From an uncultured Ruminococcus sp. (GTDB lineage Bacteria > Bacillota > Clostridia > Oscillospirales > Acutalibacteraceae): a stretch of DNA of 64,000 nucleotides. The DNA lies in NCBI GenBank assembly GCA_902784855.1, contig CACZWQ010000002.1, positions 2,547 through 66,546 on the forward strand, given 5' to 3'. This document shows, piece by piece, positions 29,601 through 63,301 of the stretch (positions within the stretch are counted from its first letter, which is position 1; the number at the start of each line of letters is the position of its first letter). Below the pieces are notes generated by a model, which was not told the DNA's origin, did not search any database, and was given only the letters and a program-made list of their open reading frames with translations. The position numbers and the translations under genes were made by a program.

Positions 29601-30298
29601 GGGACGACAACCACACGGGCGAGCTTGTCTATGTCGAGGATCCCACCGACCCGACCGAGCCCACCGAACCGACCAATCCCACACAGCCTGCGGGTCAGAG
29701 AACCATCTATCTCGACGGCGCAAAGTTCGGCACCACCACTCCCTATGTGTATGTGTGGAAGAAGGGACAAACGGAGAACATGGGCGCTTTCCCGGGCAAA
29801 CCGATGACAGCTGTCGGCAACGGCATCTACAGCTACACCTGCCCCGAGGAATACAACTGCTGCATATTCAGCAAGGACGGCGGCGACAAAAGCAAGATCA
29901 GCGGCGATCTTGATATCCCCTACACAAGCGCACTGTATAACGGAAGCTGGAGTCAGTACAGCGGCTCGAACGACCCGACGACACCCACCACACCGCCCGA
30001 CCCGGCAAATTCGGTCACGCTGGTCAACGGCAGCTTCGTTGATCCGCAGAAGGGTCAGGATTGGTACGCGTGGACATGGAACAATGACTCGGACGGCAGA
30101 TGGATTTCCGGCACGGGCGACGCGAACGCGTATGTCTTTACCGGCGAATTCGGCGCCAAGATCCTCTTTGTCAGAGTCCCTGTGGGAGAGGATCCCAGCT
30201 GGAATCCCAGAAACATCTACAACCAGACGCCCGACTTAGACACCAAGCTCGGCGGCACCTATGTCATCGACCACTGGTACGGCGGCAACTGGCAATAA
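26666..30298 (+). CDS. Secreted GH13 alpha-amylase with starch-binding (CBM26-like) modules and an internal dockerin (amylosome-type)
   Basis: Signal peptide; GFRCDTAKH, TGECW and SSHDT catalytic motifs; repeated RIYFD/RTIYLD...YVW modules; PT linkers; dockerin GDSDLNDRVDIKDVT...DVDVSKNVTILDGT. Start ATG 26666. Confidence 0.9.
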   Translation: MQRKTISLVLCLTLLVSMIAFAVPSASAATVDSASAGYSRIESADDFSWDNVNMYFLLTDRFYNGNTSNDHAYGRACDANGQPLAGWQSNPGTFHGGDFAGLTQKINEGYFNDMGVNAIWISAPYEQIHGYVTPGDPNDFSHYSYHGYYTLDYTETDANFGTKAEFKTMVDAAHAHGIRVVMDVVMNHAGYNTIKDMLEYNFGSFKDQAAATSYLYKLTGVNDLHSTVDYKNSEESWGRWWSNDWIRSGLPGYEEGSGEVTGCVAGLPDFRTESTKQVSIPPILKTKWQKEGTYNQKVAKYGSSGTVSDYLTTWLAEWVETYGVDGFRCDTAKHVELGSWKKLKNKCVAALKTWRQNNPTADGADWDEDFWMTGECWGYKSGYGSYYSDGGFDSMISFSITGNVSANPGGLGGPESIDGMYSSYAADINTNPDYNLLSYLSSHDTGLVRQNSYWQGTAFQLLPGGIQIFYGDETARPLLTNVPVGGDGHAVRSDMNWGQNADLRTHWAKVGKFRANHVAVGAGAHQLISSYSSSTGYTFARTYLDDNVTDGVICCIGAPVNQQIAVDVSSMWGNGKTVTNEYDGTTAVVTNGKATFNSGAQGVILISGPQSTIAMSLTGKPAFYDQEEVSLKLRGADYAMVSVDGGTPFRVTDGQVFSIGNDIAVGTVFEVVVTATNATETVEKTFKFKKKDPDAVTRIYFDNSSYNWSKVNAYVYDDSGAEVVENGAWPGSEMTYDSEKGLYVYEVDEDLADTGAVVFNNGTDQYPPKGVRLDINGSDKILIQKTVWKEYEGEIVQPTDPPAPGTQRTIYLDAGKFNAGSPKCYVWIKGTKTDLDPWPGTTMVAAPEMGANFYKLTCDAKYNCCIFTNNGGGLCGDQDIPYLKAMYDGTWHEVKDSDPSDPTDPTNPTGPIFGRRILIGDSDLNDRVDIKDVTAIQRHLADLGTLTGDALIAADVDVSKNVTILDGTLIQMYLVEIDRDDNHTGELVYVEDPTDPTEPTEPTNPTQPAGQRTIYLDGAKFGTTTPYVYVWKKGQTENMGAFPGKPMTAVGNGIYSYTCPEEYNCCIFSKDGGDKSKISGDLDIPYTSALYNGSWSQYSGSNDPTTPTTPPDPANSVTLVNGSFVDPQKGQDWYAWTWNNDSDGRWISGTGDANAYVFTGEFGAKILFVRVPVGEDPSWNPRNIYNQTPDLDTKLGGTYVIDHWYGGNWQ

Positions 30299-30318
30299 TC
30301 AATAGAATAAAATGATCT

Positions 30319-30344
30319 TAGGAGCGGACGCAAGTCCGCTCCTA
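30319..30344 (+). terminator. Terminator hairpin after the amylase
   Basis: TAGGAGCGGAC-gcaa-GTCCGCTCCTA followed by TTATTAT. Confidence 0.7.
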
Positions 30345-30359
30345 TTATTATCGCCGAGG

Positions 30360-30553
30360 GAAACGTGACGTTCCATCCAATCCGCGAGTGAAAAGATTAT
30401 AGAAATAATAACCTTTATAGCCCACGTTATAACGCCCGCGTGTCGCGGGAGCCAATCCGCGAGTGAAAAGATTATAGAAATAATAACCTTTATAGCCCGC
30501 GCTATAACGCAGGCATGACGGTTACCGTCCAAACAAACTTTGCACGCGTGGGT
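30360..30553. repeat. Modular palindromic repeat cluster, locus B
   Basis: CAATCCGCG at 30378 and 30453, each preceded by a hairpin and followed after 34 nt by CCC(A/G)CG-N6-CGC; 59-bp near-exact direct repeat with a 75-bp period. Confidence 0.9.
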
Positions 30554-30640
30554 AAAGCGCCCACCGGCGTAAATGACGCTTGCGTTTGCGTTGAATCTGT
30601 ATTATAATAGATAATGGAGTTTTATAAGGAGAGGTGTCCT

Positions 30641-31273
30641 ATGGAGAAGAAAAAGGTTCGCGTGCAAATCGAAGGGCGCAATTACACCGTGATCACCGTC
30701 GAGGACGAGAGCTATGTGGAGGGCGTCGCCGCCGAGGTGAGCGAGAGCATCCGCCATGCGACCCAGACGGGCAGGAATCTTGACACCCGCGACTGCGCGG
30801 TGCTGGCGGCGATGGACTTCTGCGACGACCGCCACAAGGCGGAGCGCAGGAATGCCGAGCTGGTCGAGAAGGCGGATCAGATCATCCGCCAGTCTGCCGA
30901 GCTTGCCAGACAGTGCAAGGAGTACAAGATCAAGCTCGCCGAGGCGCTGACCGAGAAAACCAATCAAACCGAGCTTGCGCGGCAGTGCGCCGAATACAAG
31001 ACCAAGCTGGCGTCTGCCATCAACGAGAACACCAACCTGACCAAGCGCATCAAGGCGCTGGAGGAACAGCTCCGTCAGCTTCTCCGCGAAAACGAATCGC
31101 TGAAAAAGACTGCCGACTCAAAGCCTCTTGAAAACGAAAAGAAATTTGAGAAAACCGTCCGCGACAAAAAGAATGAAAAGCTGATGGGATATGTACCCAT
31201 GCGGCAGTATTCGCTGTTTGAGGAAGAGGCGGACGGAAAGAACAAGCCGCAAAAGAAAAATGGAAAAAATTGA
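30641..31273 (+). CDS. zapA: Cell division protein ZapA with long coiled-coil extension
   Basis: VRVQIEGRNYTV...YVEGVAAEV...AVLAAMDFCDD ZapA pattern; internal 24-aa duplication. Confidence 0.75.
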   Translation: MEKKKVRVQIEGRNYTVITVEDESYVEGVAAEVSESIRHATQTGRNLDTRDCAVLAAMDFCDDRHKAERRNAELVEKADQIIRQSAELARQCKEYKIKLAEALTEKTNQTELARQCAEYKTKLASAINENTNLTKRIKALEEQLRQLLRENESLKKTADSKPLENEKKFEKTVRDKKNEKLMGYVPMRQYSLFEEEADGKNKPQKKNGKN

Positions 31274-33320
31274 GATATTAGCGCCCGCAGGCGGCTTTGA
31301 CAGCGTGCTCGCCGCCGTGCGTTCGGGCGCGGACGCGGTGTACTTGGGCGAAAAGCGGTTTTCCGCGCGCGCCTCGGCAAAGAATTTCTCCGACGAGGAG
31401 CTGCGGCAGGCGACCGCCTACTGCCACATCCACGGCGTCAAGGTTTATGTCACCCTGAATACGATCGTCTTTGACGAGGAGTTTTCCTCGCTCGCCGACG
31501 CGATCAAGGCGGCGGCGCGTGCCGATGTCGACGCGCTGATCGTCCAGAACATGGGCGTCGCGCGGCTGGCAAAGCAGATCGCGCCCGACCTGCCGCTGCA
31601 CGCCTCCACCCAGATGAGCGTGCACACCGCGGCGGGCGTACGCGCGCTCTGTGAGATGGGCTTTCGCCGCGTGGTGCTCGCCCGCGAGATGACCCGCGCC
31701 GAGATCAAAAAGGCGGCGCAGATCCCCGTCGAGATGGAGGTGTTCGTCCACGGCGCGCTGTGCATGTGCGTTTCGGGACAGTGCTATTTCAGCGCCATGC
31801 TCGGCTCCCGCAGCGGCAACCGCGGCGCCTGCGCCCAGACCTGCCGCCTGCCCTTTTCCGTCAACCGTCAGAAGGGCGGTCACGCGCTCAGCCTGAAGGA
31901 CAACAGCCTGATCGGTCATTTGAACGAGCTGCAGGCGCTCGGCGTCGCCTCGGCGAAGATCGAGGGCAGAATGAAGCGCCCCGAGTATGTCGCTGCCGCC
32001 GTGCGCGCCTGTGTGGAGCAGCGCGACCTCGGCTGTATCAGCGACCGGACCGCCGAGGAGCTGCGCGGTGTCTTCTCGCGCACGGGCTTCACCGACGGAT
32101 ATTATACCGACAGGCGCGGCAGAGGGATGTTCGGCACCCGCACCCGCGACGATGTGGTGTCAGCCGACGAAAAGCTGCTGGCGGGTATTCGTCAGCGCTG
32201 CAAGGACGAGCGGCAGCATGTTCCCCTTACGGGCAGCTTTTTCGCCGCGATAGGGGAGAGAGCCGTTTTGCGGCTGAGCGACGGCGTGCACACGGTCGAG
32301 GCGATCTCGGACTGCGCGGCGCAGCCTGCCGAGCGGACGCCGCTCTCGGAGGAGAAATGCCGCGCCCAGCTTGCTAAGACGGGCGGCACGGCGTACCGCA
32401 TGGAAACGCTTTCCGTCCATTTGGACGAAGGGGTGTCCCTGCCGCTCTCCGCGCTCAACAGCCTGCGGCGCGATTCTCTCAGCCGGCTTGATAACCTGCG
32501 CGCCGTTTGGCACCGCTACACTGTCAACGACATCGACATCGCGCCGCCGCAGCCCTACCGCCCGGAGAAGCAGAGTCTGCGCGTCAGTGTGCCGAAAACC
32601 AAGCTCGGCGCAGGCTTTCGCGCCTGTGAGCGCGTATTTGTGCCGCTCTTTTCCGATGTGCGCGAGTGGGAGCGCCTGCGCAGGGAGGGCTTTTCGATCG
32701 GCGTTGAGATCCCGCGCGGCATGTTCGGCAGAGAGGAACAGATCGACCGTCAGCTCGCCCGCGCGAAGGAAGCGGGCGTCACCCATGCGCTCTGCCACAA
32801 CATCGGCGCGCTGTATCAGGCGAAGCAGCACGGCTTCACCCTGCACGGCGGCTTCGGGCTGAACCTGTGCAACACCTACGACCTGCTGTGGGCGGAGGAG
32901 TACGGGATGACCGACGTCGAGCTGAGCTTGGAGCTGACCTTTGCCCGCGTCAACCGCCTCGGCGGCAAGATCGGCAGGGGCGTGATCAGCTATGGCTACC
33001 TGCCGCTCATGCTCTGCCGCAACTGCCCCGCAAAGAGCGTCGGGCTGGATTGCAAATCTTGCAAAAACAAGTCATTTATGACGGACAGACAGGGCAAGCG
33101 GTTTTTCCTGCGCTGCGACGGCAACTGCACCGAGGTGCTCAATTGCGTGCCGCTCTATATTGCGGAGGAAGAAATTTCCAAGGTTTCCACATCCTTCCGC
33201 ATGTGGCGGTTCAGTGTGGAAAACCATGTGGAAAACGTGGAAAACATACGGGAAATCCATGACTTTTCCATGTTGAAAGAAAAATTCACCCGCGGATTGA
33301 CACAGCGCGGTGTGGAATAA
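31260..33320 (+). CDS. Long-form U32 peptidase family protein (RlhA-like RNA hydroxylase, DUF3656)
   Basis: EILAPAG, GADAVYLG, HASTQMS, E.FVHGALC...SGQCY...RSGNRG.CAQ.CR Fe-S cysteines, KIEGRMK. Confidence 0.88.
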   Translation: MEKIEILAPAGGFDSVLAAVRSGADAVYLGEKRFSARASAKNFSDEELRQATAYCHIHGVKVYVTLNTIVFDEEFSSLADAIKAAARADVDALIVQNMGVARLAKQIAPDLPLHASTQMSVHTAAGVRALCEMGFRRVVLAREMTRAEIKKAAQIPVEMEVFVHGALCMCVSGQCYFSAMLGSRSGNRGACAQTCRLPFSVNRQKGGHALSLKDNSLIGHLNELQALGVASAKIEGRMKRPEYVAAAVRACVEQRDLGCISDRTAEELRGVFSRTGFTDGYYTDRRGRGMFGTRTRDDVVSADEKLLAGIRQRCKDERQHVPLTGSFFAAIGERAVLRLSDGVHTVEAISDCAAQPAERTPLSEEKCRAQLAKTGGTAYRMETLSVHLDEGVSLPLSALNSLRRDSLSRLDNLRAVWHRYTVNDIDIAPPQPYRPEKQSLRVSVPKTKLGAGFRACERVFVPLFSDVREWERLRREGFSIGVEIPRGMFGREEQIDRQLARAKEAGVTHALCHNIGALYQAKQHGFTLHGGFGLNLCNTYDLLWAEEYGMTDVELSLELTFARVNRLGGKIGRGVISYGYLPLMLCRNCPAKSVGLDCKSCKNKSFMTDRQGKRFFLRCDGNCTEVLNCVPLYIAEEEISKVSTSFRMWRFSVENHVENVENIREIHDFSMLKEKFTRGLTQRGVE
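33183..33319. promoter_or_regulatory. Possible DnaA-box cluster inside the 3' end of the U32 gene
   Basis: Two exact TTWTNCACA matches (TGTGGAAAA at 33215 and 33227) and three one-mismatch boxes (33183, 33236, 33311). Confidence 0.4.
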
Positions 33321-33488
33321 AGATTTTATTACGCTAAATCGCTCAAATTTTCAAAAGCGAAAAATAGATTTTTCCCGCGCGGAAAATACGCCGCGCCAAT
33401 ATTCCGAAGGATAATTACCCATTGGAATTATCAAAAAGAAAATAATTACAGCTTGCAAAAAACGCTAAATCATGAAGGGATGACAAAG

Positions 33489-33929
33489 ATGGAATTAAAA
33501 ATCAAAAAGCTCAGAGAGGGCGGGCGCATCCCGCAGCGCGCCACCGACGGTTCCGCAGGCATGGATCTGTACGCCTGCATCGATAAGGCGCTCACCCTCG
33601 CGCCGCAGCAGCTCACCGTGATCCCCACGGGCATCGCCATCGAGCTGCCCGACAACACCTGCGCGGCGTTTCTCTATGCGCGCAGCGGCTTGGGCGTGAA
33701 GCACGGCATCTGCCTGTCCAACGGTGTCGGCGTCATCGACAGCGATTACCGCGGCGAGATCTGCGTCGGCTTGTGCAACGTCTCCGACAAGCCCTATACC
33801 ATCGAGCCGGGCGAGCGCGTCGCTCAGATGGTCATCGCGCCCGTCCTCACCCCCGAGATCATCGAGGTCGCCGAGCTTGGCGACACCGAACGCGGCGCGG
33901 GCGGCTTCGGGTCGACGGGCAAAAAGTGA
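33489..33929 (+). CDS. dut: dUTP diphosphatase
   Basis: SAGMDL, ARSGLG, GVIDSDYRGEI, RVAQMV, RGAGGFGSTG motifs. Confidence 0.96.
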   Translation: MELKIKKLREGGRIPQRATDGSAGMDLYACIDKALTLAPQQLTVIPTGIAIELPDNTCAAFLYARSGLGVKHGICLSNGVGVIDSDYRGEICVGLCNVSDKPYTIEPGERVAQMVIAPVLTPEIIEVAELGDTERGAGGFGSTGKK

Positions 33930-34034
33930 TCTGTGCGCCGCAAATCGGCGTCAGCGCGTTCGACAAGCTTTTCTTGCATGTTTCGCGAATTAACGGTATC
34001 ATACCTATTATATAGATAAAAAGGAGCCAAAACC

Positions 34035-35048
34035 ATGTTCTCATTTTCGAAAGATATCGGCATCGACCTCGGTACCGCCAACACGCTGGTGTGTCTCAAG
34101 GGCAAGGGGATCATTCTGCGTGAGCCGTCGGTGGTCGCGGTCGACATCCGCACCGACACCGTGCTGGCGGTCGGTTCACAGGCGAAGGATATGATCGGCA
34201 GGACCCCGGGGTCGATCGTCGCGGTGCGTCCGCTCAAGGACGGGGTGATCGCCGATTTTAAGATCACCGCCAAGATGTTGCAGCACTTTATCCGCAAGTC
34301 GGTCAAGCCCGGCATTTTCAGCAAGCCGCGCGTCGTCATCTGCATGCCCACGGGCGTGACGGAGGTCGAGCGCAAGGCGGTGGAGGACGCCGCCTATCAG
34401 GCGGGCGCCAAGCCGCCCGTCATCCTGATCGAGGAGCCGATGGCGGCGGCGATCGGCGCGGGGCTTCCCGTGGACGAGCCGACGGGCACCATGGTCGTGG
34501 ACATCGGCGGCGGCACCAGCGAGGTGGCGGTGCTTTCTCTCGGCGACATCGTGACCGCGTGCTCGGTGCGCGTCGCGGGCGACCGCTTTGACGAGGCGAT
34601 CCTCACCTACATCAAGCGCCACTACAACCTGCTCATCGGCGAGCGCACCGCCGAGGATATCAAGATCAAGATCGGCTCCGCTTACCCCTATGAAAACGAA
34701 AAGACCATGGTGGTCAAGGGCAGGAACCTCGTCGACGGTCTGCCCAAGGACATCACCGTCAGCGCCGCCGAGGTGCGCGAGGCGCTTGCCGATCCGCTGA
34801 ACACCATCGTCGAGGCGATCAAGACCACCTTGGAGAAAACGCCCCCCGAGCTTTCCGCCGACATCATCGACCACGGCATTATGCTGACCGGCGGCGGCGC
34901 GCTGCTGCGCGGCATCGACATGCTGGTCATGCAGCAGACGGGCATGCCCGTCCACATCGCCAACCGCCCGCTCGACTGCGTGGTCGACGGCGCGGGCAAG
35001 CGGCTGGGCAAGGCGATCGCCAGCAAATATAAGCATAACAGACGATAA
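34035..35048 (+). CDS. mreB: Rod shape-determining actin homolog MreB
   Basis: [50 protein letters not shown]. Confidence 0.95.
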
Positions 35049-35878: not shown

Positions 35879-36381
35879 AGAAGAAAAGACAGCACCCGTT
35901 TTTCCGCTACCTGATCTTCGCCGTGGAGATCCTGCTGCTGTGGCTGCTGCAAAGCACGCCTAAGCTGATGCCGTCTGTGCTCGGCGCAACGCCGTTTTTG
36001 CTGCTTGCCGCGGCGCTCTCCTTTTCCGTGAATGTCGACGCCGTTCCTGCCGTCGTGCTGGGCGCGGTCTGCGGCGTGCCCGCGGATATCTCCGCTTTCG
36101 GCACCGTCGGCTTCTTTTCCGTCGCGACCGTTTTGGTCTGCTACGCGCAGGCGACGGTCGTCGGCACCTATTTTAACCGCAACGCGCTGACGTGCAGCGT
36201 GTTTTCCGCAGGCTCCGCAGCGGCGGTGCTCTTCGTCTACTGGCTGCTGTTTCGCGTGTTCGCGGGATATCCCGAGTGCGGGCTGCTGCTGTGGACGCAC
36301 TATCTGCCGCGTGCGCTTTACACCGCGGTGTGTTTCCTTCCGCTCTATTTTTTCAACCGTTGGATCGTCAAGCATTTGTGA
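35875..36381 (+). CDS. mreD: Rod shape-determining membrane protein MreD
   Basis: 168-aa polytopic membrane protein between mreC and pbp2. Confidence 0.78.
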   Translation: MKKKRQHPFFRYLIFAVEILLLWLLQSTPKLMPSVLGATPFLLLAAALSFSVNVDAVPAVVLGAVCGVPADISAFGTVGFFSVATVLVCYAQATVVGTYFNRNALTCSVFSAGSAAAVLFVYWLLFRVFAGYPECGLLLWTHYLPRALYTAVCFLPLYFFNRWIVKHL

Positions 36382-36410
36382 GACTCCCCTGATATTTCGG
36401 AAAGGCGGTG

Positions 36411-38435
36411 ATGACCATGAGAAATAAACTGCGCGGCAAGCTGCCGTTCACGGTCTGCGCCGTGCTGGTGCTGATCGCGGCGACGGTGTTTTTGGCGCGG
36501 CTCGCCGACTGGCAGCTCTTTCACGGCGCCGAATACCGCCGTCTGGCTTCCCGCTCGACGGGCTACTACGTGGAGACCCCGCCGACGCGCGGTGAGATAC
36601 TCGACCGCAACGGCGAGGGCATCGTCACCAATATCACCCACTATAAGATCGTGATCGACAAGGTGTACGCCGACGACGGCAGCCTCAACGGCACCCTGCT
36701 CAACCTCATGGGGCTGCTTCACCGCACGGGAGACAAGTGGGACGACGCGCTGCCCATCATCCTCTCGGACGGCGTGTTTTCCTTTCAAAAGAACGCCGAC
36801 GCGCAGCTGGCACAATTGCGTGAAACGCTGGGGGTCGGCGAGGATATCACGGCGGAGGATTGCGTCTCGCTGCTCTGCCGGCGCTATCACATCGACGGGG
36901 ACTATGACGACGCCGAGCGGCGCGCGCTCTGTTCGGTGCGCTACCACATGGAGCTGACCGGCTATTCCAACACCAATCCCTATACCTTCGCCTCCGATGT
37001 CAGCCGCAAGGGCGTGACCGCCGTCAGCGAGAACACCCAAGGCGTCGGCGGTATCGACGTACAGACCTATCTGGTGCGCGGCGCCAAGTCGCCCGACCTT
37101 GCGCCCCATGTCGTGGGCGCGCTCGGCGCGATCACCGAGGACGAATACAAGGAGCTGTCCCACAGCCCCAAGCACTATACCATCAACGACACGGTCGGTA
37201 AATTCGGCGTGGAGGCGCTGTTCGAGGATGAATTGAAGGGCGAGGGCGGCACCAAGATCATCCAGCGCAATTCAGACGGCGCGATCGTCGAGACCGTCGA
37301 GACCGTCGACGCCAAGCCCGGCAACACCGTCTATCTGACGCTGGACGCGAAGCTTCAGCAGATCGCCGTCAAGTCGCTCGCGCAGAACATCCGCGACGCC
37401 CGCACCGAGGGCATCACCGTCTGCAAGGAGACCGGCAAGAAGCTTCAGGGCGAGGACTGCAAAAGCGGCGCGGTGGTCATGCTGGACGTCAGCGACTTTT
37501 CGGTGCTGGCGGCGGCGAGCTGCCCGACCTATGACCTCAACAAGTACAGCGAGTACGGGGATTATTACACCCGCCTCGCGAACGATAAAACCGCTCCGCT
37601 GTACAACCGCGCCTTTTCGGGCACCTTTGCCTGCGGCTCGGTCTTTAAGCCGGTCGTCGCGATGGCGGCGCTGGAGGAGAAGATCATCAAGCCCGGCACC
37701 AAGATCTTCTGCACCCAAAAGTACGACTACTATCCCACCAACATCGTCGAGTGCATGCACCGCCACGGCGAGCTGGATCTGCGCGGCGCGCTCACGCAGT
37801 CGTGCAACTACTACTTTGCCGAGACGGGCAGACGGCTGGGGATCGATACGATGTACCTCTATGCCGAGAAGTTCGGGCTGGGCGGCTATACGGGCTTGGA
37901 GATCGAGGAATCCCGCGGGATGCTGGCGGGGCGCGACAGCAGCAGCTGGATGCCCGGCAACACCGTACAGGCGGCGATCGGTCAGTCCGACAACGCCTTT
38001 ACGCCCGTGCAGCTCGCCACCTATGCCGCCACGATCGCCAACAACGGCGTGCGCCTGAAAACGCACATCATCAGCAAGATCACCGACTACGAGCGCAAAA
38101 AGGTGTTCGCCGATTACAACAAGGCGGAGCAGCTCGACGAGTGCGGCGTTTCCGCCCAAAACCTGAAAACCGTGCAGAACGACATGCTCTCGGTCACCCA
38201 AGACCCTTCCGGCACCGCGAATTCCGTGTTCGGCGGCTACCGGGTCAAGGTCGCCGCCAAAACCGGCACCGCCGAGAACTCCGGCTCCGACCACAGCACC
38301 TTCATCTGCTATGCGCCCTTTGACAAGCCCCAAGTCGCCGTTGCGGTCGTGCTGGAAAACGGCGTGCGCGGCAAGTATTCCATGCAGGTCGCGAAGGATC
38401 TGCTCGACGGATATTTTAGCGGAGAAAAACGGTGA
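36411..38435 (+). CDS. mrdA: Class B penicillin-binding protein 2
   Basis: TM, RGEILDRNG dimerisation domain, GSVFK (SxxK), SCN (SxN), KTGTAE (KTG). Start may be 36408, 36411 or 36417. Confidence 0.9.
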   Translation: MTMRNKLRGKLPFTVCAVLVLIAATVFLARLADWQLFHGAEYRRLASRSTGYYVETPPTRGEILDRNGEGIVTNITHYKIVIDKVYADDGSLNGTLLNLMGLLHRTGDKWDDALPIILSDGVFSFQKNADAQLAQLRETLGVGEDITAEDCVSLLCRRYHIDGDYDDAERRALCSVRYHMELTGYSNTNPYTFASDVSRKGVTAVSENTQGVGGIDVQTYLVRGAKSPDLAPHVVGALGAITEDEYKELSHSPKHYTINDTVGKFGVEALFEDELKGEGGTKIIQRNSDGAIVETVETVDAKPGNTVYLTLDAKLQQIAVKSLAQNIRDARTEGITVCKETGKKLQGEDCKSGAVVMLDVSDFSVLAAASCPTYDLNKYSEYGDYYTRLANDKTAPLYNRAFSGTFACGSVFKPVVAMAALEEKIIKPGTKIFCTQKYDYYPTNIVECMHRHGELDLRGALTQSCNYYFAETGRRLGIDTMYLYAEKFGLGGYTGLEIEESRGMLAGRDSSSWMPGNTVQAAIGQSDNAFTPVQLATYAATIANNGVRLKTHIISKITDYERKKVFADYNKAEQLDECGVSAQNLKTVQNDMLSVTQDPSGTANSVFGGYRVKVAAKTGTAENSGSDHSTFICYAPFDKPQVAVAVVLENGVRGKYSMQVAKDLLDGYFSGEKR

Positions 38436-39897: not shown

Positions 39898-41604
39898 TTG
39901 GACATGTCCGTGATTTTTGATGCGGGCGTGGTGGGGCTGCGCATCATCATGCCCCTGCTCGCCATCGTCATCGTCTATCAGTGCTACGCAGCGATGCGCC
40001 GCCGCAGGAGACCCGAAAAACCGCTGGTCTCGCTGTATAACCCCAATTCCGGCGGCATGATCCCTGTCGTGTTCTGGGAGAATTCCATCGGAAGAAGCAA
40101 GTCCAGCGATATCGTCATCAACGATCTGTCCGTTTCGCGCAACCACTGCGTACTGCTCAGAAGAAACGCCGGCTGGTTTATCTCCGACGTCGGCTCGCTG
40201 TCGGGCACCTTTGTCAACGGCGTCCGCATCCACGGCAGGGCGCAGGTGCTGATTGACGACATCATCACCGTCGGCAAGACCGAATACCAGTTAAAACGCG
40301 GCGATGACTTCAATTCTCCGCTGCGCGCGAGCCGTTTCTTTTCCAAGGTCAGCGACAAGCCCGCCATCCAGGCGTGGAAGCTGATGTTCATGATCACGAT
40401 GTTCCACCTCTTTATGGCGGTGGAGGCGATGTTCTGGAACGACGGCGGGAATGTCTATGCGCCCATGATCCTTTTCGGCGCGCTCGCCGTGGTGGAGTGG
40501 GGCTTCTTCTCCGTCTCTTATTTTGCGCTGCGGCGCGTCAACTTTGAGCTGGAATCGCTCGGGTTGTTCTTGACGGGTATCGGCGTCCTGCTGCTGGTGC
40601 GGCAGGTGGAGCGCTCGGCATATGTGCAGCTGATCGCGGCGGCGCTGGGTATCGTGCTCTACTGCGTCATCATCAAGTTCATCGAGGATCCCGACCGCAG
40701 CGATAAGATCCGCATTCCCATGATGATCATCGCGGTGCTGATGCTCGCGTCCAGCATCGTGCTGGGCAGGGTCACCAACGGCGCGGCAAACTGGGTGTAT
40801 ATCGGCTCGATCTCCTTCCAGCCGTCGGAATTCGTCAAGACCATCTTTATCTTTACCGGTGCGGGCGCGCTGGATAGATTGCAGACAAAGCGCAACCTCA
40901 TCGAGTTCATCATCTTTTCGGTCGTCTGCGTGGGCTTGCTCGCGCTGATGAGCGACTTCGGCACGGCGCTGATCTTCTTCGTCACCTTCCTGCTCGTCGC
41001 CTTCATGCGCTCGGGCGATATCAAGACGATCATCCTGCCCGTCGGCGCGGTCGCCGGCGCGTTCGCGCTGCTGCGCTTTGTCGCCGACCGCTTCAACTTC
41101 ATCGCCGACCGCTTCAATTATGTGTTCAACCGCTTCAAGGCTTACCGCCATGTCTGGGATTACGCCAACGAGGCGGCGGGCTATCAGCAGGTGCGCGTGC
41201 TGACCTATATCGCCAGCGGAGGCCTGTTCGGCGTCGGTCTCGGCAACGGCTATTTCAAGCAGTATTTCGCCTCCGAGAGCGACTTGGTCTTTGCGCTGCT
41301 CGCCGAGGAGATGGGCGTGATCGTCGCAATCGTCGCGGCGCTTTCCGTGGCGCTGCTGATGATCTATGCGCGCGCCATCACCACCCGCAGCCGCAGCACC
41401 TTCTATTCCATCTCCGCCTGCTGTGCGGCAGGTCTGTTGGTCGTGCAGCTCTCGCTGAATGTGTTCGGCGCGACCGATATCCTGCCCCTGACGGGCGTCA
41501 CCTTCCCGTTCATCAGCTCGGGCGGTTCCAGCCTGATCTCCTGCTGGGGACTGCTGGCGTTCATCAAGGCGGCGGACGAGCGGACCTATTCGATCAAACG
41601 TTAG
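39898..41604 (+). CDS. FHA domain-SEDS (RodA/FtsW/SpoVE) fusion
   Basis: FHA: IGRSKSSDIVI.D.SVSRNHC...SGTFVNG. SEDS: GAANW...SFQPSEFVK, SDFGTAL, GGLFGVG, SDLVF, LPLTGVTFPFISSGGSS. Confidence 0.9.
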   Translation: MDMSVIFDAGVVGLRIIMPLLAIVIVYQCYAAMRRRRRPEKPLVSLYNPNSGGMIPVVFWENSIGRSKSSDIVINDLSVSRNHCVLLRRNAGWFISDVGSLSGTFVNGVRIHGRAQVLIDDIITVGKTEYQLKRGDDFNSPLRASRFFSKVSDKPAIQAWKLMFMITMFHLFMAVEAMFWNDGGNVYAPMILFGALAVVEWGFFSVSYFALRRVNFELESLGLFLTGIGVLLLVRQVERSAYVQLIAAALGIVLYCVIIKFIEDPDRSDKIRIPMMIIAVLMLASSIVLGRVTNGAANWVYIGSISFQPSEFVKTIFIFTGAGALDRLQTKRNLIEFIIFSVVCVGLLALMSDFGTALIFFVTFLLVAFMRSGDIKTIILPVGAVAGAFALLRFVADRFNFIADRFNYVFNRFKAYRHVWDYANEAAGYQQVRVLTYIASGGLFGVGLGNGYFKQYFASESDLVFALLAEEMGVIVAIVAALSVALLMIYARAITTRSRSTFYSISACCAAGLLVVQLSLNVFGATDILPLTGVTFPFISSGGSSLISCWGLLAFIKAADERTYSIKR

Positions 41605-41665
41605 TGCTTTTGAAAGGCATGCGGATGATCCGATCATACTCAACTACTAAAAAGGGGGTGTGCTG

Positions 41666-43060
41666 ATGAAAAGAACGCTCAGGCGCAGCACACTGATTTT
41701 AATACTCACCATCGCGTTTATCGGCGGCATCGGCTTTTTCACCGCTGAGCTGCTGTTTAACGCCGGAGACTGGGTCGACCAGCCCTATAACGCGCATATC
41801 TCGGGCAGCGGCGGGCTTGAAAAGGCGGGCAGCATTCTCGACCGGGACGGCAATCCGCTGGCGCAGTCCGTCGACGGCGAGCGCGTCTACAGCGACGACG
41901 AGACCGTGCGCAGGGCGCTGCTGCATACCGTCGGCGACAACAGCCTCAATATCTCGACGGCAGTCCAGAGCAAGTACCGCTCACTGCTCACGGGCTACAG
42001 CCTGATCTGGGGCTTGAACATGCCGCAGTCGATGCGCACCTCGCGCGACATCGTGCTCACCGTGGACGCCGAGACCTGCAAGTCGGCATACAGCATGCTG
42101 CAAACGGGCTTTGAGGAGCCCAAGCGCGGCGCGTGCGTGATCTACAACTACAAGACGGGAGACGTGATCTGCTCGGTCAGCACGCCGGGTTATGACCCCG
42201 CCGACCCGCCGCAGATCAACGAGGAGAACGAAGCCTACTACGACGGCGTTTACCTCGACAATGTATTGTCCTCCACCTTCACGCCCGGCTCCATCTTTAA
42301 GATCGTCACCGCCGCGGCGGCGATCGAGAACATCCCCGACATCTATCAGCGCACCTGGTACTGCGACGGCAGGGAGACCATCGGAAAGAACGACATCCAC
42401 TGCTATCAGGACACCGCCCACGGCGAGATCAATCTTCAGGAGGCGATGGAGCATTCCTGCAACATCGTCTTTGCCAAGCTCGCGGTCGAGCTGGGAAGCG
42501 AGAAGATGAACGCCATGGCGGAAAAGATGGGCGTCAACATGAGCTTTGAGATCGATGACGTCTTTACCGCGAAGGGTCATTATCTCGCGCCCGCCAACGA
42601 CGAGAACGTCCTCGGCTGGACGGGCGTCGGTCAGGGCTCGGGCGAGTACGAGGACAAGGTCAACCCCATGCAGATGGCGATCATCTGCTCCGCGGTCGCC
42701 AACCAGGGCACCGCCGTCAACCCCACCTACATCAAGGGCGGCAACGGCGATGTGCTCAAGGAGATCGGCATCAAGCAGAACAAGACCTATGACTTTCTTG
42801 ACCCCAACACCGCCAAGCAGGTGGGCGACATCATGCCCGTCTATGAGATCGGCGGGCTGACCGTGCACGCCAAGACCGGCACCGCAGAGGTCGGCGACGA
42901 GAAGGGTCCGAACGCGTGGTTCGTCGGCTATGTCGCCGACAGCGACCTGCCGCTCGCCTTCGCCTGCGTGGTGGAGGATGCGGGCTTGGGCTCCGAATAT
43001 GCCCGCCCCGTAGCGGAAGCGGCGCTCGAGACAGCGGCGCGGCTCAGAGGTACCTTGTGA
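41666..43060 (+). CDS. Class B penicillin-binding protein (PbpA-like partner of the SEDS protein)
   Basis: GSILDRDG, PGSIFK (SxxK), SCN, KTGTAE. Confidence 0.88.
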   Translation: MKRTLRRSTLILILTIAFIGGIGFFTAELLFNAGDWVDQPYNAHISGSGGLEKAGSILDRDGNPLAQSVDGERVYSDDETVRRALLHTVGDNSLNISTAVQSKYRSLLTGYSLIWGLNMPQSMRTSRDIVLTVDAETCKSAYSMLQTGFEEPKRGACVIYNYKTGDVICSVSTPGYDPADPPQINEENEAYYDGVYLDNVLSSTFTPGSIFKIVTAAAAIENIPDIYQRTWYCDGRETIGKNDIHCYQDTAHGEINLQEAMEHSCNIVFAKLAVELGSEKMNAMAEKMGVNMSFEIDDVFTAKGHYLAPANDENVLGWTGVGQGSGEYEDKVNPMQMAIICSAVANQGTAVNPTYIKGGNGDVLKEIGIKQNKTYDFLDPNTAKQVGDIMPVYEIGGLTVHAKTGTAEVGDEKGPNAWFVGYVADSDLPLAFACVVEDAGLGSEYARPVAEAALETAARLRGTL

Positions 43061-59591: not shown

Positions 59592-60140
59592 TCACTCGCG
59601 GATTGGGTCGAGCGTCACGCTCGCGCGGGTGGAGATGGTGATGAGGCTCATGCCCTCCGGCTGCGCGGGCAGGCGTTCCATGATACGCAGCAGCAGCAGC
59701 TCCGCCCAGCTGCGGGCATTTTCCGCCTTGAGCAGATCGATGCGGATCTCCTCCTCCCGAAGCAGCGCGGCGGCGTTGCCGGTGCACAGCAGGAACGCGT
59801 CGCCCTGTATGATATCCGACTCGCGGCGCTGCGACAGGGGCAGCGCTTCGCCGTTCCGGAAACGAAGGAGCTTCATATCTCCGATGCAGCGCCAAGCGGC
59901 TTTTTTGCCCGCCAGCGCCAGTGCGGCGATCGATTTTTCCCCGATCATTTGGGAAAACAGCGTGTCAAAGCGGTCGGCGAGTGTGCCGCCCGCATTATCC
60001 CAGCGGGCGGTCAGGGTCTCGGCAATACAATCGCAGTCCTCGTCGCGGACGACGAGCAGCAGGTCGCTGTCATCCTCCGCGCGGGTGCCGACGGCGCTTT
60101 TGCCGTCGCGGTGTGTAAAGGAAAATACGTCGGGTATCAT
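59592..60140 (-). CDS. Degenerate PP2C/PPM-fold protein (probable pseudophosphatase)
   Basis: CIGDMKL.RFRNGE and GDAFLLCTG echo PPM motifs, but the DG and DN metal ligands are absent. Confidence 0.55.
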   Translation of the reverse strand: MIPDVFSFTHRDGKSAVGTRAEDDSDLLLVVRDEDCDCIAETLTARWDNAGGTLADRFDTLFSQMIGEKSIAALALAGKKAAWRCIGDMKLLRFRNGEALPLSQRRESDIIQGDAFLLCTGNAAALLREEEIRIDLLKAENARSWAELLLLRIMERLPAQPEGMSLITISTRASVTLDPIRE

Positions 60141-60143
60141 CCG

Positions 60144-61574
60144 TTACGGCTCCAGCTCCAAGCGCAGGATGTTCGCTTGGTCGCCGACCGTCACGGCGTC
60201 GCCCGGGCGCAGGGTAACGGGCGTATTCGGTGTAAGCTTCTGACCGTTGCCCGTAAAGGTGCCGAAGGTGGAGCCGAGGTCGGTCACGGTAAAGGTCTTG
60301 GTGTCGGAGTCAAAGCTGATTGAGCAATGCTTGCCGCTGACGCCGGGCGTGCCGGGCTGATAGACGATGACGCACTCGGCGGCGTTGCGTCCCACGGTGA
60401 CGGGCGCTCTGCCGACGGGGAAGGTCTGACCGTTGTGCTGTGATGCCTCGGAGCGGATGACCGCCTTGACCGACGGCGTTGAGGGCGCCATCGTAGCGCC
60501 GTAGTCGCCGATGCCGACGTTGCCGGGAGCCGGTACGGCGGGAGCGGGGGCAGGAGCGGAAGCTGCTGCGGGAGCGCCCTTCTTCTTTTTGAGGATGAGA
60601 AGCACGACCACCGCCGCACCGCCGAGCAGCAGCACGCCGCACGCGATCAGGACGATGAGCAGGATGGTGCCGAAGCCGCTGTTAGCTGCGTCCATGTAGG
60701 GGATATTGTTTTTATCGAGGAAGCTTATCAGCTCGCTGGAGCTGATCGCGTAATAGTCCGCTTCGACCTGACCCTCATAGGGGCTCTTGGACTCGACGTT
60801 GGTGTTGACGCCGAGAACGCCGCCCTCTTCGTTGACCAAGGGACCGCCCGAGTTGCCGTGCTGGATGGTCGCGTCGATGGCGATACGGTCGACGCCCTTG
60901 CCCTCGTTGACGACGAACTTGTTGATGACGCCCTTGTGAACGGTGGCATCCTCAACGCCGTACTTGCTGGCGGAGGTGAACTGGTTGTCGGCGTTGCCGG
61001 GGAAGCCGATGGTGTAGACGGTCGAGCCGACCATGCTTTCATCGGGCTTTTGCAGCTTGAGCGCATGGCGCTTGGTGGTGGGGTTTTTGAGCTTGAGCAC
61101 CGCGAGGTCGACCTTGTTGACGTCGCCGTAGCTGTCGACATAGGCGATATCATAGTCGTCCTTGGAGTAGTAGACGCGCAGCTCGCAGGTCGGCGCGCCG
61201 ATGAGGATGGGATAGGTGTCTTGGTAGAGCTGACCTGTGTTATAGAGGAAGGTCTCGCCCTCGTTCGCCTTGACATAGGAGTCAATGACATGGCAGTTGG
61301 TGACGATGTAGGTGGGAGCATCCTCCTTGTCGCCGATGAAGAAGCCGGAGCCGCCCGAGAATTCGGTGTCGCCGACGTGCTTGACCTCCTCAATGTTGGT
61401 GCCGTCGGTGATGTAGATGCCCGCGTTCTTCAGGTAAAAGACGATGGCGATGACGCCCTGCTTGACACTGTTGTCAAAAGCCTTGGTGTTCAGCGTGGAG
61501 ACGGTCAAAACCGCCAGCGCGACCATCAGAACGGACATCGCAGCTGCAGCTGTTCGCTTGAATGTTGCTTTCAT
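60144..61574 (-). CDS. Exported trypsin-like (S1) serine protease - TM - cytoplasmic FHA domain
   Basis: Signal peptide; GSGF, VTNCHV (His), DLAVLK (Asp), HGNSGGP (Ser); TM; Pro/Ala linker; FHA VGRN...GVSGKHC...DLGSTFGT. Confidence 0.88.
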   Translation of the reverse strand: MKATFKRTAAAAMSVLMVALAVLTVSTLNTKAFDNSVKQGVIAIVFYLKNAGIYITDGTNIEEVKHVGDTEFSGGSGFFIGDKEDAPTYIVTNCHVIDSYVKANEGETFLYNTGQLYQDTYPILIGAPTCELRVYYSKDDYDIAYVDSYGDVNKVDLAVLKLKNPTTKRHALKLQKPDESMVGSTVYTIGFPGNADNQFTSASKYGVEDATVHKGVINKFVVNEGKGVDRIAIDATIQHGNSGGPLVNEEGGVLGVNTNVESKSPYEGQVEADYYAISSSELISFLDKNNIPYMDAANSGFGTILLIVLIACGVLLLGGAAVVVLLILKKKKGAPAAASAPAPAPAVPAPGNVGIGDYGATMAPSTPSVKAVIRSEASQHNGQTFPVGRAPVTVGRNAAECVIVYQPGTPGVSGKHCSISFDSDTKTFTVTDLGSTFGTFTGNGQKLTPNTPVTLRPGDAVTVGDQANILRLELEP

Positions 61575-61632
61575 GGTTCATACCTCTCTTTTCTTTGTGT
61601 TAATTATGATAAATAATATCGGTGACAAAGGA

Positions 61633-62466
61633 TCAGGGTGTATCGGCGCACCGCTCGCCCGCAGAATCGGAGGGGAAGCGCACGACCAGCGCCGTGTAGT
61701 TGTCCTGATAGGGCAGGGCAGCTTCCGCGACGCCCTTGGCGATGGCGTCGCACGCCTGCTGCGCCGAGGAAGCTCGCAGCGCCTTTATCAGCGCCTTTTC
61801 GTCGAGCACACCGCCGACGCCGTCGGAGCAAGCCAGGATCACGTCGCCCCGCTGGAGCGGGATCGGCTGCGCCGCGGTATCTGTTACGATCGCGTAGCCT
61901 GCCATGCCGATGAACGAGGTCAGCGCTGCCGATTCCGGATGTCGTCTGCCCGGGATGGGGTCGAGACAGCCGTTGCGGATCGCTTCCAGATATTTCAGAT
62001 GGCACATATTGTGCATGATGTTGAGCCGAATCAGTTGTTCGCCGCGCAGCAAAAACAGGTAGCTGTCGCCGACGCAGGCAAAATACAGCTTCTCTCGAAA
62101 GATCACCCCGAGCACCGCCGTGCTGCCGCCGTTGCCGCCGAGGAGGGAAACCACCTGTTCCGAGGCGGCGCGCAGGCTTTTGACCAGCTGCGCCGGGATG
62201 TTGCCCTCGCAGTCAAGGCTCAAAAAATCCTCGCGCAGACACTGTACTGCCGTATCGGAGGCGAGCTTGCCGTCCGCCATGCCGCCCATCCCGTCGCAGA
62301 CGCAGAACATCATGCCGCGGGCGTCGTACATGCTGCGGTCGAGCGCGTTGACAAAGGCAAAGGAATCCTCCTGCCGCATGCGCTTGCCGATCTCCTGCAA
62401 ATTCGCGATATCAAAGAGCGGCGATTCATCGATGCGGTGTTTCCGCTTTTTCAGGAACCCGAACAT
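61633..62466 (-). CDS. PP2C/PPM Ser/Thr protein phosphatase
   Basis: RQEDS, CDGMGG, VGDS, ACSDG, DNYT motifs all intact. Confidence 0.92.
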   Translation of the reverse strand: MFGFLKKRKHRIDESPLFDIANLQEIGKRMRQEDSFAFVNALDRSMYDARGMMFCVCDGMGGMADGKLASDTAVQCLREDFLSLDCEGNIPAQLVKSLRAASEQVVSLLGGNGGSTAVLGVIFREKLYFACVGDSYLFLLRGEQLIRLNIMHNMCHLKYLEAIRNGCLDPIPGRRHPESAALTSFIGMAGYAIVTDTAAQPIPLQRGDVILACSDGVGGVLDEKALIKALRASSAQQACDAIAKGVAEAALPYQDNYTALVVRFPSDSAGERCADTP

Positions 62467-62469
62467 GCC

Positions 62470-63213
62470 TTATGCGTCCTCCCAGCGGAAGCCTTCGCCG
62501 CACAGGGGGATGTACAGGTAGTCGCAGCCGCCCAGACAGACGACATCGCGCGCACGCAGCTGCACCGGCTCCGAAACGGGCGCGCCGTTCAAGAGCACCT
62601 TGCCCGTGGAGATCGGTTGGAGCAGACAGGCGTTCTCATCCTCGAGGTAGTCCAGCCGCGCCCAGATGGCAAAGCGGTTGTTGTCCTCGTCGACGAGACG
62701 GATATCGGCGCGTTCGCTCTTGCCGATGGTGTTGCGTTTTTGACCGATGCGGAAATCCCTGCCGCGCTGTGCGCCCCTGATGCAGACGAGCCAGCCGACG
62801 AAGTTGCCCTCAAAAACGTCTGCGGGCATGTCCTGCCGAGCCGCTGTGGGCGCTTCCGTGACAGGCGTTTGCTGGACAGGCGCCTCTGTGACAGGCATGT
62901 TCATGGCAGGCGCCTCTGTGACAGGCATGTTCATGGCAGGCGCTTCTGCGGCGCCGTCCGCTGCGGGTGCATAGCCCTGCGGCGCGACCGTGGCGCCGTA
63001 ATCGAGCGAGACGGGAGCGGTATAGCCCTGCGGCGCAACGGTGGCGCCGTAATCGAGCGAAACGGGGGTGGCGGCATAGCCCTGCGGCGCGACGGTGGCG
63101 CCGTAGTCCAGCCCGCCGAAGGGTGCGCTGTTTGCGACCTTGCGGCAGTAGGGGCACTGCGGGTAGATGTCCGTGTCATAAATATGACCTTTTCCGCATT
63201 CCTGTAAAGCCAT
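62470..63213 (-). CDS. Zn-finger - repeat linker - FHA domain protein
   Basis: C..GH...CPYC N-terminus; LDYGATVAPQGY x3; APAMNMPVTE repeats; FHA GWLVCI.G...G.DF...IGKS; ATG 63213 with AGGAG. Confidence 0.85.
   Translation of the reverse strand: MALQECGKGHIYDTDIYPQCPYCRKVANSAPFGGLDYGATVAPQGYAATPVSLDYGATVAPQGYTAPVSLDYGATVAPQGYAPAADGAAEAPAMNMPVTEAPAMNMPVTEAPVQQTPVTEAPTAARQDMPADVFEGNFVGWLVCIRGAQRGRDFRIGQKRNTIGKSERADIRLVDEDNNRFAIWARLDYLEDENACLLQPISTGKVLLNGAPVSEPVQLRARDVVCLGGCDYLYIPLCGEGFRWEDA
62851..62940 (-). repeat. 30-bp coding tandem repeat (APAMNMPVTE)
   Basis: Two exact copies at 62881-62940 plus a diverged copy at 62851-62880. Confidence 0.9.
62971..63111 (-). repeat. Three coding copies of LDYGATVAPQGY
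   Basis: 36-nt copies at 62971-63006, 63022-63057 and 63076-63111. Confidence 0.9.
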
Positions 63214-63301
63214 AAGCACAATCTCCTTTTCTCTTTTGACCTTATTTTAGCATTTTCTTCCACAAAAAGCAACCATTCAGCGCAAAATTCTAGAGAAACT
63301 A

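Follow-up and report, generated by a model that had tools for sequence, protein, structure and literature searches.

That an FHA domain reads a phosphothreonine (pThr) in a neighbouring disordered segment is a well-known principle, and FHA domains select Thr over Ser in their ligands. Most of what is known of FHA-pThr signalling in bacteria comes from Actinobacteria and type VI secretion, and to our knowledge the acceptor sites there have been mapped singly, without a shared consensus. Here we describe a minus-strand operon of an uncultured Ruminococcus sp. in which two FHA proteins share a short motif centred on Thr. The operon lies in a stretch of 64,000 nucleotides (GenBank assembly GCA_902784855.1, contig CACZWQ010000002.1, positions 2,547 to 66,546 of the forward strand), which is referred to as the window. 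Its four genes encode a soluble protein consisting of zinc ribbon, disordered linker and FHA-like domain (ZnR-FHA, here called the adaptor), a PP2C Ser/Thr phosphatase, an extracytoplasmic trypsin-like protease that is tethered by one transmembrane (TM) helix to a cytoplasmic linker and FHA domain (Trypsin-TM-FHA or protease-FHA), and a degenerate second PP2C. The motif occurs three times in the adaptor linker and once in the protease linker. We propose that its Thr is a phospho-acceptor that the protease would read in trans with its canonical FHA domain, giving rise to multivalent clustering, a reading to which we assign slightly better than even chances.

Several known systems resemble this layout. 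In the actinobacterial proteins GarA and OdhI, Hanks kinases phosphorylate an N-terminal ETTS site, which is then bound by the FHA domain of the same protein, the spacer in GarA being about 30 residues long. The window proteins likewise carry Thr in a flexible N-terminal segment by the FHA domain, and the FHA domains of GarA and OdhI were among the fold matches of the protease FHA domain. However, the spacer in the protease has 9 residues, the pocket of the adaptor is non-canonical, and both motif sequence and partners are unrelated. The actinobacterial fhaA-fhaB-pstP-rodA-pbpA-pknA-pknB cluster and the PpkA-PppA-Fha1 set of type VI secretion are similar as operons that combine Hanks kinase, PP2C and FHA proteins at the membrane, but they contain no tethered protease, zinc-ribbon adaptor or repeated G-x-T. 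PADLOC and NCBIfam scans of the locus returned no defined system or equivalog, but generic protease matches and sub-threshold scores for FhaB, TagH and Stp1, with FhaB and TagH far below their cut-offs.

Rv1747 of Mycobacterium tuberculosis, a PknF substrate, has two FHA domains joined by a disordered linker with the phospho-acceptors T152 and T210 (PMC8339232). It shares with our locus the acceptor Thr in a disordered linker beside the FHA domain of a membrane protein as well as the involvement of a Hanks kinase and a PP2C, and multivalent clustering has been proposed for it (PMC8339232). In our operon, by contrast, the putative sites and readers are distributed over two proteins, a soluble adaptor with three sites and a non-canonical FHA domain and a protease with one site and a canonical one; the predicted output lies in this extracytoplasmic protease instead of an ABC transporter, and the putative acceptors follow a strict, repeated consensus. 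Human TIFA carries pT9 near its FHA domain and assembles into TIFAsomes through head-to-tail, intermolecular FHA-pThr chains (PMC13283784). With its single Thr shortly N-terminal to the FHA domain, TIFA is the best analogue of the protease-FHA tail, especially where the protease gene stands alone. It is, however, a eukaryotic soluble adaptor with the kinase ALPK1 and an unrelated motif; the analogy is functional, and homology is limited to the FHA fold. In EsrG1, pT152 (T263 in a second species) lies in an intrinsically disordered region before the FHA domain, and the exchange T152A ablates the output (PMC13622651). EsrG proteins resemble the adaptor in combining a variable N-terminal domain, including zinc-finger variants, with a pThr-containing disordered region and an FHA domain at the C-terminus, a kinase and a phosphatase being encoded alongside (PMC13622651). 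Yet Esr clusters, which belong to another phylum (actinobacterial), are defined by EsrA beta-propeller sensors, MoxR, vWA and transglutaminase, none of which is present in the window operon, and neither a repeated consensus nor a tethered protease has been reported for them. In the fuller relatives of our operon (80 loci, see below), a vWA-TM-FHA protein was present and MoxR was not seen, no genome-wide search for MoxR having been made. Our literature search, which included combinations of FHA, zinc ribbon, PP2C and trypsin, found no study of this gene cassette or of the linker motif, and the cassette does not feature in the conflict-systems paper of Aravind 2020. What appears to be new is a repeated consensus that is restricted to Thr throughout a large family and has spread to the protease in one lineage.

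The first-pass annotation had placed the motif in low-complexity linkers just before the FHA domain of both proteins. Its motif strings and coordinates were correct (60483-60506 corresponds to DYGATMAP, the whole GDYGATMAP spanning 60483-60509), and the location was borne out by the translations and by predicted disorder. In AlphaFold2 models built with family alignments, both motifs lie in structure-free linkers (predicted local distance difference test, pLDDT, 47-62) beside FHA beta-sandwiches (pLDDT at least 90). We class both as short linear motifs of disordered sequence, located immediately before an FHA domain. A search of the six-frame translation of the 2.05-Mb genome for [DE][YFW]G[AS]T.[AP]P gave four matches, which were the three adaptor sites and the one protease site. 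The pattern G[AS]T[VMTAI]AP gave 11 matches in all frames and, among open frames of at least 150 residues, only the same four sites. Two relaxations of the first pattern were tried in all, with the same outcome. Chance as the source of the shared motif is excluded.

At the DNA level, all three adaptor copies are spanned by a 51-nt tandem repeat at 62969-63112 (2.7 copies, 87% matches; Tandem Repeats Finder). The three repeat cores vary at 4 nucleotide positions, all of them synonymous, compared with 27% of the possible single-base changes, indicating that purifying selection acts on the repeat peptide. Between protease copy and adaptor repeats, 5-6 of 24 nucleotides are exchanged, mainly at synonymous sites. 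This divergence rules out a recent gene conversion between adaptor and protease; the similarity is maintained at the peptide level.

A homology search for ZnR-FHA proteins yielded 158 relatives, of which the best 120 were inspected; 114 linkers could be delimited. Related peptides, such as EVGATVAPSGY, DIGKTVGVF and EDYGATEPV, were present in several copies in nearly all of the inspected linkers, the ZnR-FHA adaptors carrying two to six motif copies in the disordered region. In the 114 linkers, the generalised motif G.T[VEMI][APG] occurred 274 times versus 8.6 ± 2.9 times in composition-preserving shuffles. Its serine version, G.S[VEMI][APG], was not enriched (9 versus 7.1), even though these linkers contain almost as much Ser as Thr. 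At least one copy was found in 108 linkers, at least two in 93 and at least three in 76. With Gly (-2) and Thr (0) preset by the search pattern G.T, the flanks showed an acidic residue at -4, Ile, Val, Tyr or Leu at -3, Ala or Lys at -1, Val or Glu at +1, Pro, Ala or Gly at +2 and, at +3, mostly an aliphatic residue (Val, Ala, Leu, Ile; Val commonest with 41%) and some Pro. Adaptors of the type with Glu at +1 accounted for only 3 of 80 loci examined. The [DN]-Y-G-A-T-x-A-P of the window is the lineage version of a Thr-only family motif, [DE]-hydrophobic-G-x-T-[VE]-[PA]-hydrophobic. Tyr was ruled out as the acceptor by the variable -3 position; since it is not conserved, Thr rather than Tyr is regarded as the functional residue. 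Across the ZnR-FHA family, no residue but the central Thr is invariant and intolerant of Ser, as would be expected of a Hanks-kinase acceptor that is read by a pThr-specific FHA domain. Together with the context of kinase, PP2C and FHA domain, the Thr-only statistics strongly suggest that the motif Thr is a phospho-site.

The putative reader resides on the protease. Its FHA domain scored 56.7 bits with Pfam PF00498 (cut-off 20.7) and was modelled as an 11-strand beta-sandwich at a pLDDT of at least 94; the top 50 Foldseek matches were almost all FHA structures (E down to 3.4e-8), several of them with bound pThr peptide. The segments GR, S-G-K-H and T-D-L-G-S-T-F-G-T are conserved across 118 orthologs. 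G67, R68, S85 and H88 of the domain are invariant in a 30-sequence alignment, and Arg, Ser and His are present in all aligned orthologs. A KKKK stretch directly after the TM helix indicates that the C-terminus is cytoplasmic. The motif residue Thr361 is located 33 residues past the TM helix and 9 residues ahead of the first FHA strand.

In the protease family, the motif is confined to the clade of the window, with about 10 of 120 orthologs (P0005-P0010, P0012, P0014, P0021; 54-99% identity) showing the form [DNA]YGATxAP (AYGATTAP in P0009). While the linkers of this clade range from 44 to 97 residues and are variable in sequence, the motif is retained; the other orthologs have short low-complexity linkers without it. 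It is still present at two loci where the protease-FHA gene stands alone, with no adaptor or PP2C gene adjoining (L012, L013). In P0014, the protease linker additionally contains three APQGY units resembling the adaptor repeat, which hints at a transfer out of the adaptor linker as the source of the motif in the protease linker. In the nearest outgroup found within the family (G123, L016), the adaptor is canonical and the protease linker is devoid of the motif. The sharing of the motif between adaptor and protease is a clade-specific innovation, not a property of the system. In orthologs, where the first-pass annotation had proposed to look for it, the motif was thus borne out for the adaptors in its generalised form (108/114 linkers), but not for the protease-FHA family, where about 110 of 120 orthologs are without it.

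The adaptor differs from the protease in its pocket. AlphaFold2 predicted a zinc ribbon (residues 1-25, pLDDT about 90), a linker (30-135, pLDDT 47-62) and an FHA sandwich (138-236, pLDDT about 90 or more). With the Pfam FHA model the FHA-like domain reached 18.9 bits, below the cut-off of 20.7 that its homologs pass, and it also scored on the Yop-YscD_cpl model. Its best sequence match in the PDB, a weak one, was FhaA of M. tuberculosis (3po8, E 0.007), the nearest solved relative by sequence. In the pocket, GK stands for GR, NRFAIWA for ISRENHA and STG for S-x-N; Lys takes the place of the pThr-binding Arg and Gly that of Asn, and S-R-x-x-H is without its Ser and His. Instead of these two, MAFFT aligns Arg and Trp, and the phmmer alignment to FhaA has Asn and Ala. 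Only the clade of the window (4 of 119 aligned relatives) has this non-canonical pocket, while Arg-Ser-His is found in 65 of 119. As the remodelled state (GK, NRFAIWAR) is shared by relatives with 51% identity, the domain seems to have been repurposed instead of having decayed. An FHA-proximal motif copy, present in most canonical relatives, is likewise missing from the window adaptor. Its linker contains a second tandem repeat of EAPAMNMPVT units, which includes Thr and does not match the G-x-T motif. Near-identical database adaptors of 247, 227 and 209 residues vary in the copy number of both repeats, one variant having two DYGAT copies; the linker is therefore length-polymorphic between strains. 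One database protein (P0132, from a contig of 1187 bp) continues in frame from the zinc ribbon and two DYGAT repeats into an unrelated metallophosphoesterase-like sequence, most likely through an assembly chimera that arose at the repeat.

A pattern scan of one genome per species revealed at least 577 stretches encoding a relative of the adaptor, and the best 80 of these loci were annotated by BLAST against reference parts. The recurrent gene order was one or two Hanks kinases, ZnR-FHA, PP2C, Trypsin-TM-FHA, a second PP2C and vWA-TM-FHA. The part from ZnR-FHA to the second PP2C was found in this order in the window, in dozens of the 80 loci and in L009, L014 and L016. Most hosts belonged to the Lachnospiraceae, Oscillospiraceae or Ruminococcus, and outliers to Proteobacteria-type lineages. 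Candidate cultured carriers are Lachnospiraceae bacterium AB2028, Oscillibacter valericigenes An890, Flavonifractor sp. An92 and Blautia sp. MSJ-9. Among sampled genomes of the same family as the window, 3 of 151, including its own, contained protease-FHA, and the sole other genome from its genus yielded none; the cassette is thus patchily distributed. Across the 80 loci, the motif (G.TV[AGS]) occurred 4.87 times per 1000 residues in the adaptors and 0.38 times in cassette kinases and vWA-FHA proteins, compared with a background of 0.18. The protease-FHA class (0.17) was at background and both PP2C classes at or below it, which ruled out a motif general to all cassette components. In two Lachnospiraceae loci (L022, L026), the kinases upstream of the adaptor carry tandem G-V-T-V/M-Q-N-P repeats and IGATVAAG in the juxtamembrane region, and the vWA-TM-FHA protein has PIGRTVAA ahead of its FHA domain. 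Nowhere else is it as clear that several partners of one system carry the motif. Judged by its gene content, the window operon is a reduced copy of this widespread cassette, without kinase and vWA-FHA, with a degenerate second PP2C and a non-canonical adaptor pocket.

The first PP2C, which the first-pass annotation had suggested as the enzyme for dephosphorylation, is intact and lies between the adaptor and protease genes, adjacent to both. It scored 38.1 bits with Pfam PF00481 (cut-off 20.3) and 85.7 bits with the Stp1/IreP-type NCBIfam model (cut-off 230). Its translation contains the RQED, DGMGG, GDS, SDG and DN motifs, and the enzyme is apparently active. The second PP2C aligned end to end, with deletions, to the 240-residue PP2C of the cassette (L009 11311-12033; BLASTP E 7e-18). 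Its DGLGGH metal-binding loop is deleted and GDSR and SDG are altered, identifying it as a predicted pseudo-phosphatase.

Kinase candidates were found elsewhere in the genome. No kinase or vWA-TM-FHA gene was present in the window or within 9 kb upstream, and tblastn with cassette vWA-FHA queries found no vWA-FHA homolog in the genome. Seven matches to the Pkinase family (PF00069) were obtained. Four kinase paralogs, of which three form a tandem on contig C13 and the fourth lies on C6, have the architecture of cassette kinases, with catalytic domains 41-48% identical to these. The tandem zinc-ribbon Hanks kinases (G000:C13 about 29850-34800) have Thr/Pro/Gln-rich juxtamembrane segments and no adjoining FHA gene. 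The C6 kinase (G000:C6 about 40068-41870; L004 1351-3153) is composed of zinc ribbon, Hanks kinase domain, TM helix and ectodomain, and shows SLDYDRTVAAD in the juxtamembrane segment directly past the catalytic domain. 'DY..TVA' occurs four times in the six-frame genome, three times in the adaptor and a fourth time in this segment. A related [DE]-hydrophobic-x-x-T-x-A-A-D was present at the same place in 10 of the 120 kinase homologs listed, mostly the closest relatives (e.g., MEIDRTVAAD, MDFEATTAAD, VEVQPTAAAD), in accordance with the adaptor motif template except for Gly. As a lead, the C6 kinase is the best candidate partner of the kinase-less operon, and SLDYDRTVAAD may serve as an autophosphorylation and docking site.

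Based on these data, we propose the following course of events. Membrane Hanks kinases of the cassette type, here encoded elsewhere and best represented by the C6 kinase, would phosphorylate the motif Thr, and the operon PP2C would take the phosphate off. The protease would read the pThr through the FHA domain of its cytoplasmic tail, the only canonical reader that the operon has in this lineage. Upon phosphorylation, protease molecules would be chained or clustered with the adaptor (which has three sites, and in one strain variant two), with one another and possibly with the kinase. A phospho-signal from the cytoplasm might thereby be coupled to the arrangement, and perhaps the activity, of the protease on the outside of the membrane. 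With four motif Thr in disordered linkers and a single canonical FHA reader, the operon corresponds, by sequence, to a module layout of the Rv1747 type. Reading is expected to be intermolecular because the adaptor pocket is non-canonical and the protease site is too close to its own FHA domain. The termini of FHA domains lie opposite the peptide-binding loops, and this topology together with the 9-residue spacer probably precludes binding in cis in the protease.

A number of observations weigh against this proposal. The operon itself contains no kinase, and the match in the C6 kinase was found post hoc with a relaxed pattern that most of the kinase homologs listed do not show. In cassette kinases, the motif is enriched no more than about two-fold, in part owing to a few loci. 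Pro at +3, as in the T-V-A-P of the window, is not the commonest residue of the family at this position, which is Val. The protease FHA family has Phe or Tyr where most FHA domains carry the Asn of S-x-N-G-T. As about 90% of protease-FHA orthologs are without the motif, it is not required for the core function of the protease. Finally, the argument from the 9-residue spacer is based on general FHA topology and not on measured coordinates.

Apart from chaining, the first-pass annotation had considered intramolecular closure, i.e., a switch of the GarA/OdhI type in which the phosphorylated motif closes its own FHA domain and blocks other partners. We consider this unlikely for the window proteins. 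The position of the motif in a flexible linker N-terminal to the FHA domain of both proteins suits such a switch, and 52 of the 65 canonical Arg-Ser-His adaptors carry a G-x-T at most 28 residues from the FHA domain; the window adaptor, however, has neither the pocket Arg, Ser and His nor an FHA-proximal copy. Solo protease-FHA genes that keep the motif would fit a self-contained pair of ligand and reader, and structures of FHA domains bound to their own phosphorylated tail (DgcB, MDC1) were among the fold matches of the protease FHA domain, but the short distance from Thr361 to strand 1 and the presumed orientation of the binding loops argue against closure there. Moreover, one-to-one closure needs no three identical copies. 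Intramolecular closure is thereby weakened for both proteins, whereas multivalent chaining fits the data best, given three adaptor sites and a canonical protease FHA domain.

The motif could also act as a docking peptide independently of phosphorylation, either as a recruitment site for kinase or PP2C, as a ligand of the adaptor FHA-like domain or as a pseudo-substrate, with Thr being kept for its shape. Some FHA domains, such as those of EssC and YscD-like proteins, work without pThr, and the adaptor domain, with its Yop-YscD_cpl score and a pocket that is remodelled and yet conserved at 51% identity, might have acquired a new ligand. A shape requirement does not readily account for the intolerance of Ser at the centre (274 versus 9 occurrences), a hallmark of pThr-FHA recognition, and the constant association with Hanks kinase and PP2C would be hard to explain without phosphorylation; we therefore regard docking of this kind as improbable. 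Very unlikely is a historical by-product, in which a piece of adaptor linker moved into the protease by illegitimate recombination and is functionless there, or a low-complexity coincidence: the APQGY units of P0014, the many protease orthologs without the motif and the strain-variable adaptor repeats are compatible with it, but transfer explains origin and not retention, [DN]YGATxAP is retained in protease orthologs down to 54% identity while the flanking linker changes, the DNA differences of the protease copy are mainly synonymous, and the pattern is unique to adaptor and protease genome-wide.

The features of the locus are compiled in Table 1. The adaptor gene starts with the ATG at 63213, preceded by AGGAG, as do database proteins (P0125); a GTG at 63219 is an alternative start. 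The protease gene product was matched by Pfam Trypsin_2 (4.8e-22) and FHA (3.3e-15) and contains a signal peptide. Among the Pfam-scanned neighbours of the operon were a dockerin protein, a leucine-rich repeat-dockerin protein, alanyl-tRNA synthetase, peptidase U32 and YceG, while an adjacent 260-residue protein had no Pfam hit.

Table 1. Positions of the operon, its genes and the motif-bearing and domain segments within the window
Feature	Coordinates	Strand	Basis
Operon of four closely packed genes	59592-63219	-	Open reading frames, translations, Pfam
Adaptor gene (ZnR-FHA), 247 residues	62470..63213	-	Open reading frame, translation
Motif copy 1, LDYGATVAPQGY, adaptor residues 37-48	63076..63111	-	Translation
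Motif copy 2, LDYGATVAPQGY, adaptor residues 55-66	63022..63057	-	Translation
Motif copy 3, LDYGATVAPQGY, adaptor residues 72-83	62971..63006	-	Translation
Second tandem repeat in adaptor linker, EAPAMNMPVT units	62849..62948	-	Tandem Repeats Finder, period 30, 3.3 copies
Adaptor FHA-fold domain, non-canonical pThr pocket	62494..62802	-	Pfam, alignments, AlphaFold2
PP2C Ser/Thr phosphatase gene	61633..62466	-	Pfam PP2C, motifs
Protease gene: signal peptide, extracytoplasmic trypsin-like (HtrA-like) protease, TM helix, cytoplasmic linker, FHA	60144..61574	-	Pfam, translation
Protease TM helix, residues 305-328	60591..60662	-	Translation; hydrophobic run found in all orthologs
Motif GDYGATMAP, protease cytoplasmic linker, residues 356-364	60483..60509	-	Translation
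Canonical protease FHA domain, residues 370-476	60147..60467	-	AlphaFold2, Foldseek, ortholog alignments
Degenerate second PP2C gene, 182 residues	59592..60140	-	No Pfam hit; BLASTP alignment

Further FHA proteins and motif-like strings were noted in the genome. A 575-residue open reading frame encodes an FtsW/RodA-type (SEDS) membrane protein with an FHA domain fused to its N-terminus (window about 40084-40275, G000:C2:42630-42821); this domain could be a competing reader of the same phospho-sites. Two additional FHA proteins are a double-FHA ABC-transporter ATPase of Rv1747-like architecture (G000:C28 about 36298-36825) and an EssC/FtsK-like protein with an N-terminal FHA domain (G000:C100 about 8127-8312). 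Small proteins composed of zinc ribbon, Tyr/Pro-rich linker and several TM helices are encoded near G000:C1 29325 and near G000:C15 18892, both on the minus strand. They display the motif-like strings EEDYGETEPYF and MDYDYTMAADGGYAQP and represent possible further substrates. A sortase with DPDDYGVTAAY (contig C14) was considered as a motif carrier and judged to be a chance match within a globular domain.

Going beyond the proposed clustering, we can tentatively picture a portable, Thr-only code, [DE]-hydrophobic-G-x-T-[VE]-[PA], that would wire a kinase/FHA/protease cassette of anaerobic Firmicutes. In the lineage of the window, this code may have been copied from the adaptor to the protease tail, with a related string on the kinase juxtamembrane segment, while the adaptor reader was repurposed and the operon kinase lost. 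The outcome might be a self-assembling, phospho-dependent cluster of an extracytoplasmic protease, similar to TIFAsomes or Rv1747. As a whole, this scenario is possible rather than probable.

For an adaptor family of several hundred members from gut and rumen Clostridia and some Proteobacteria, the motif predicts phospho-sites and the ligand preference of FHA domains from sequence. Should the prediction fail, the motif would still need an explanation, as the statistics exclude chance. If it is true, peptides and point mutants can be designed directly, and the control of a protease on the outside by a cytoplasmic phospho-signal would become approachable. The window lineage, in which the protease appears to have gained the motif, the adaptor pocket was remodelled and the kinase became unlinked, represents a natural experiment in pathway rewiring, and would then provide an example of signalling that was rewired by moving a short linear motif.

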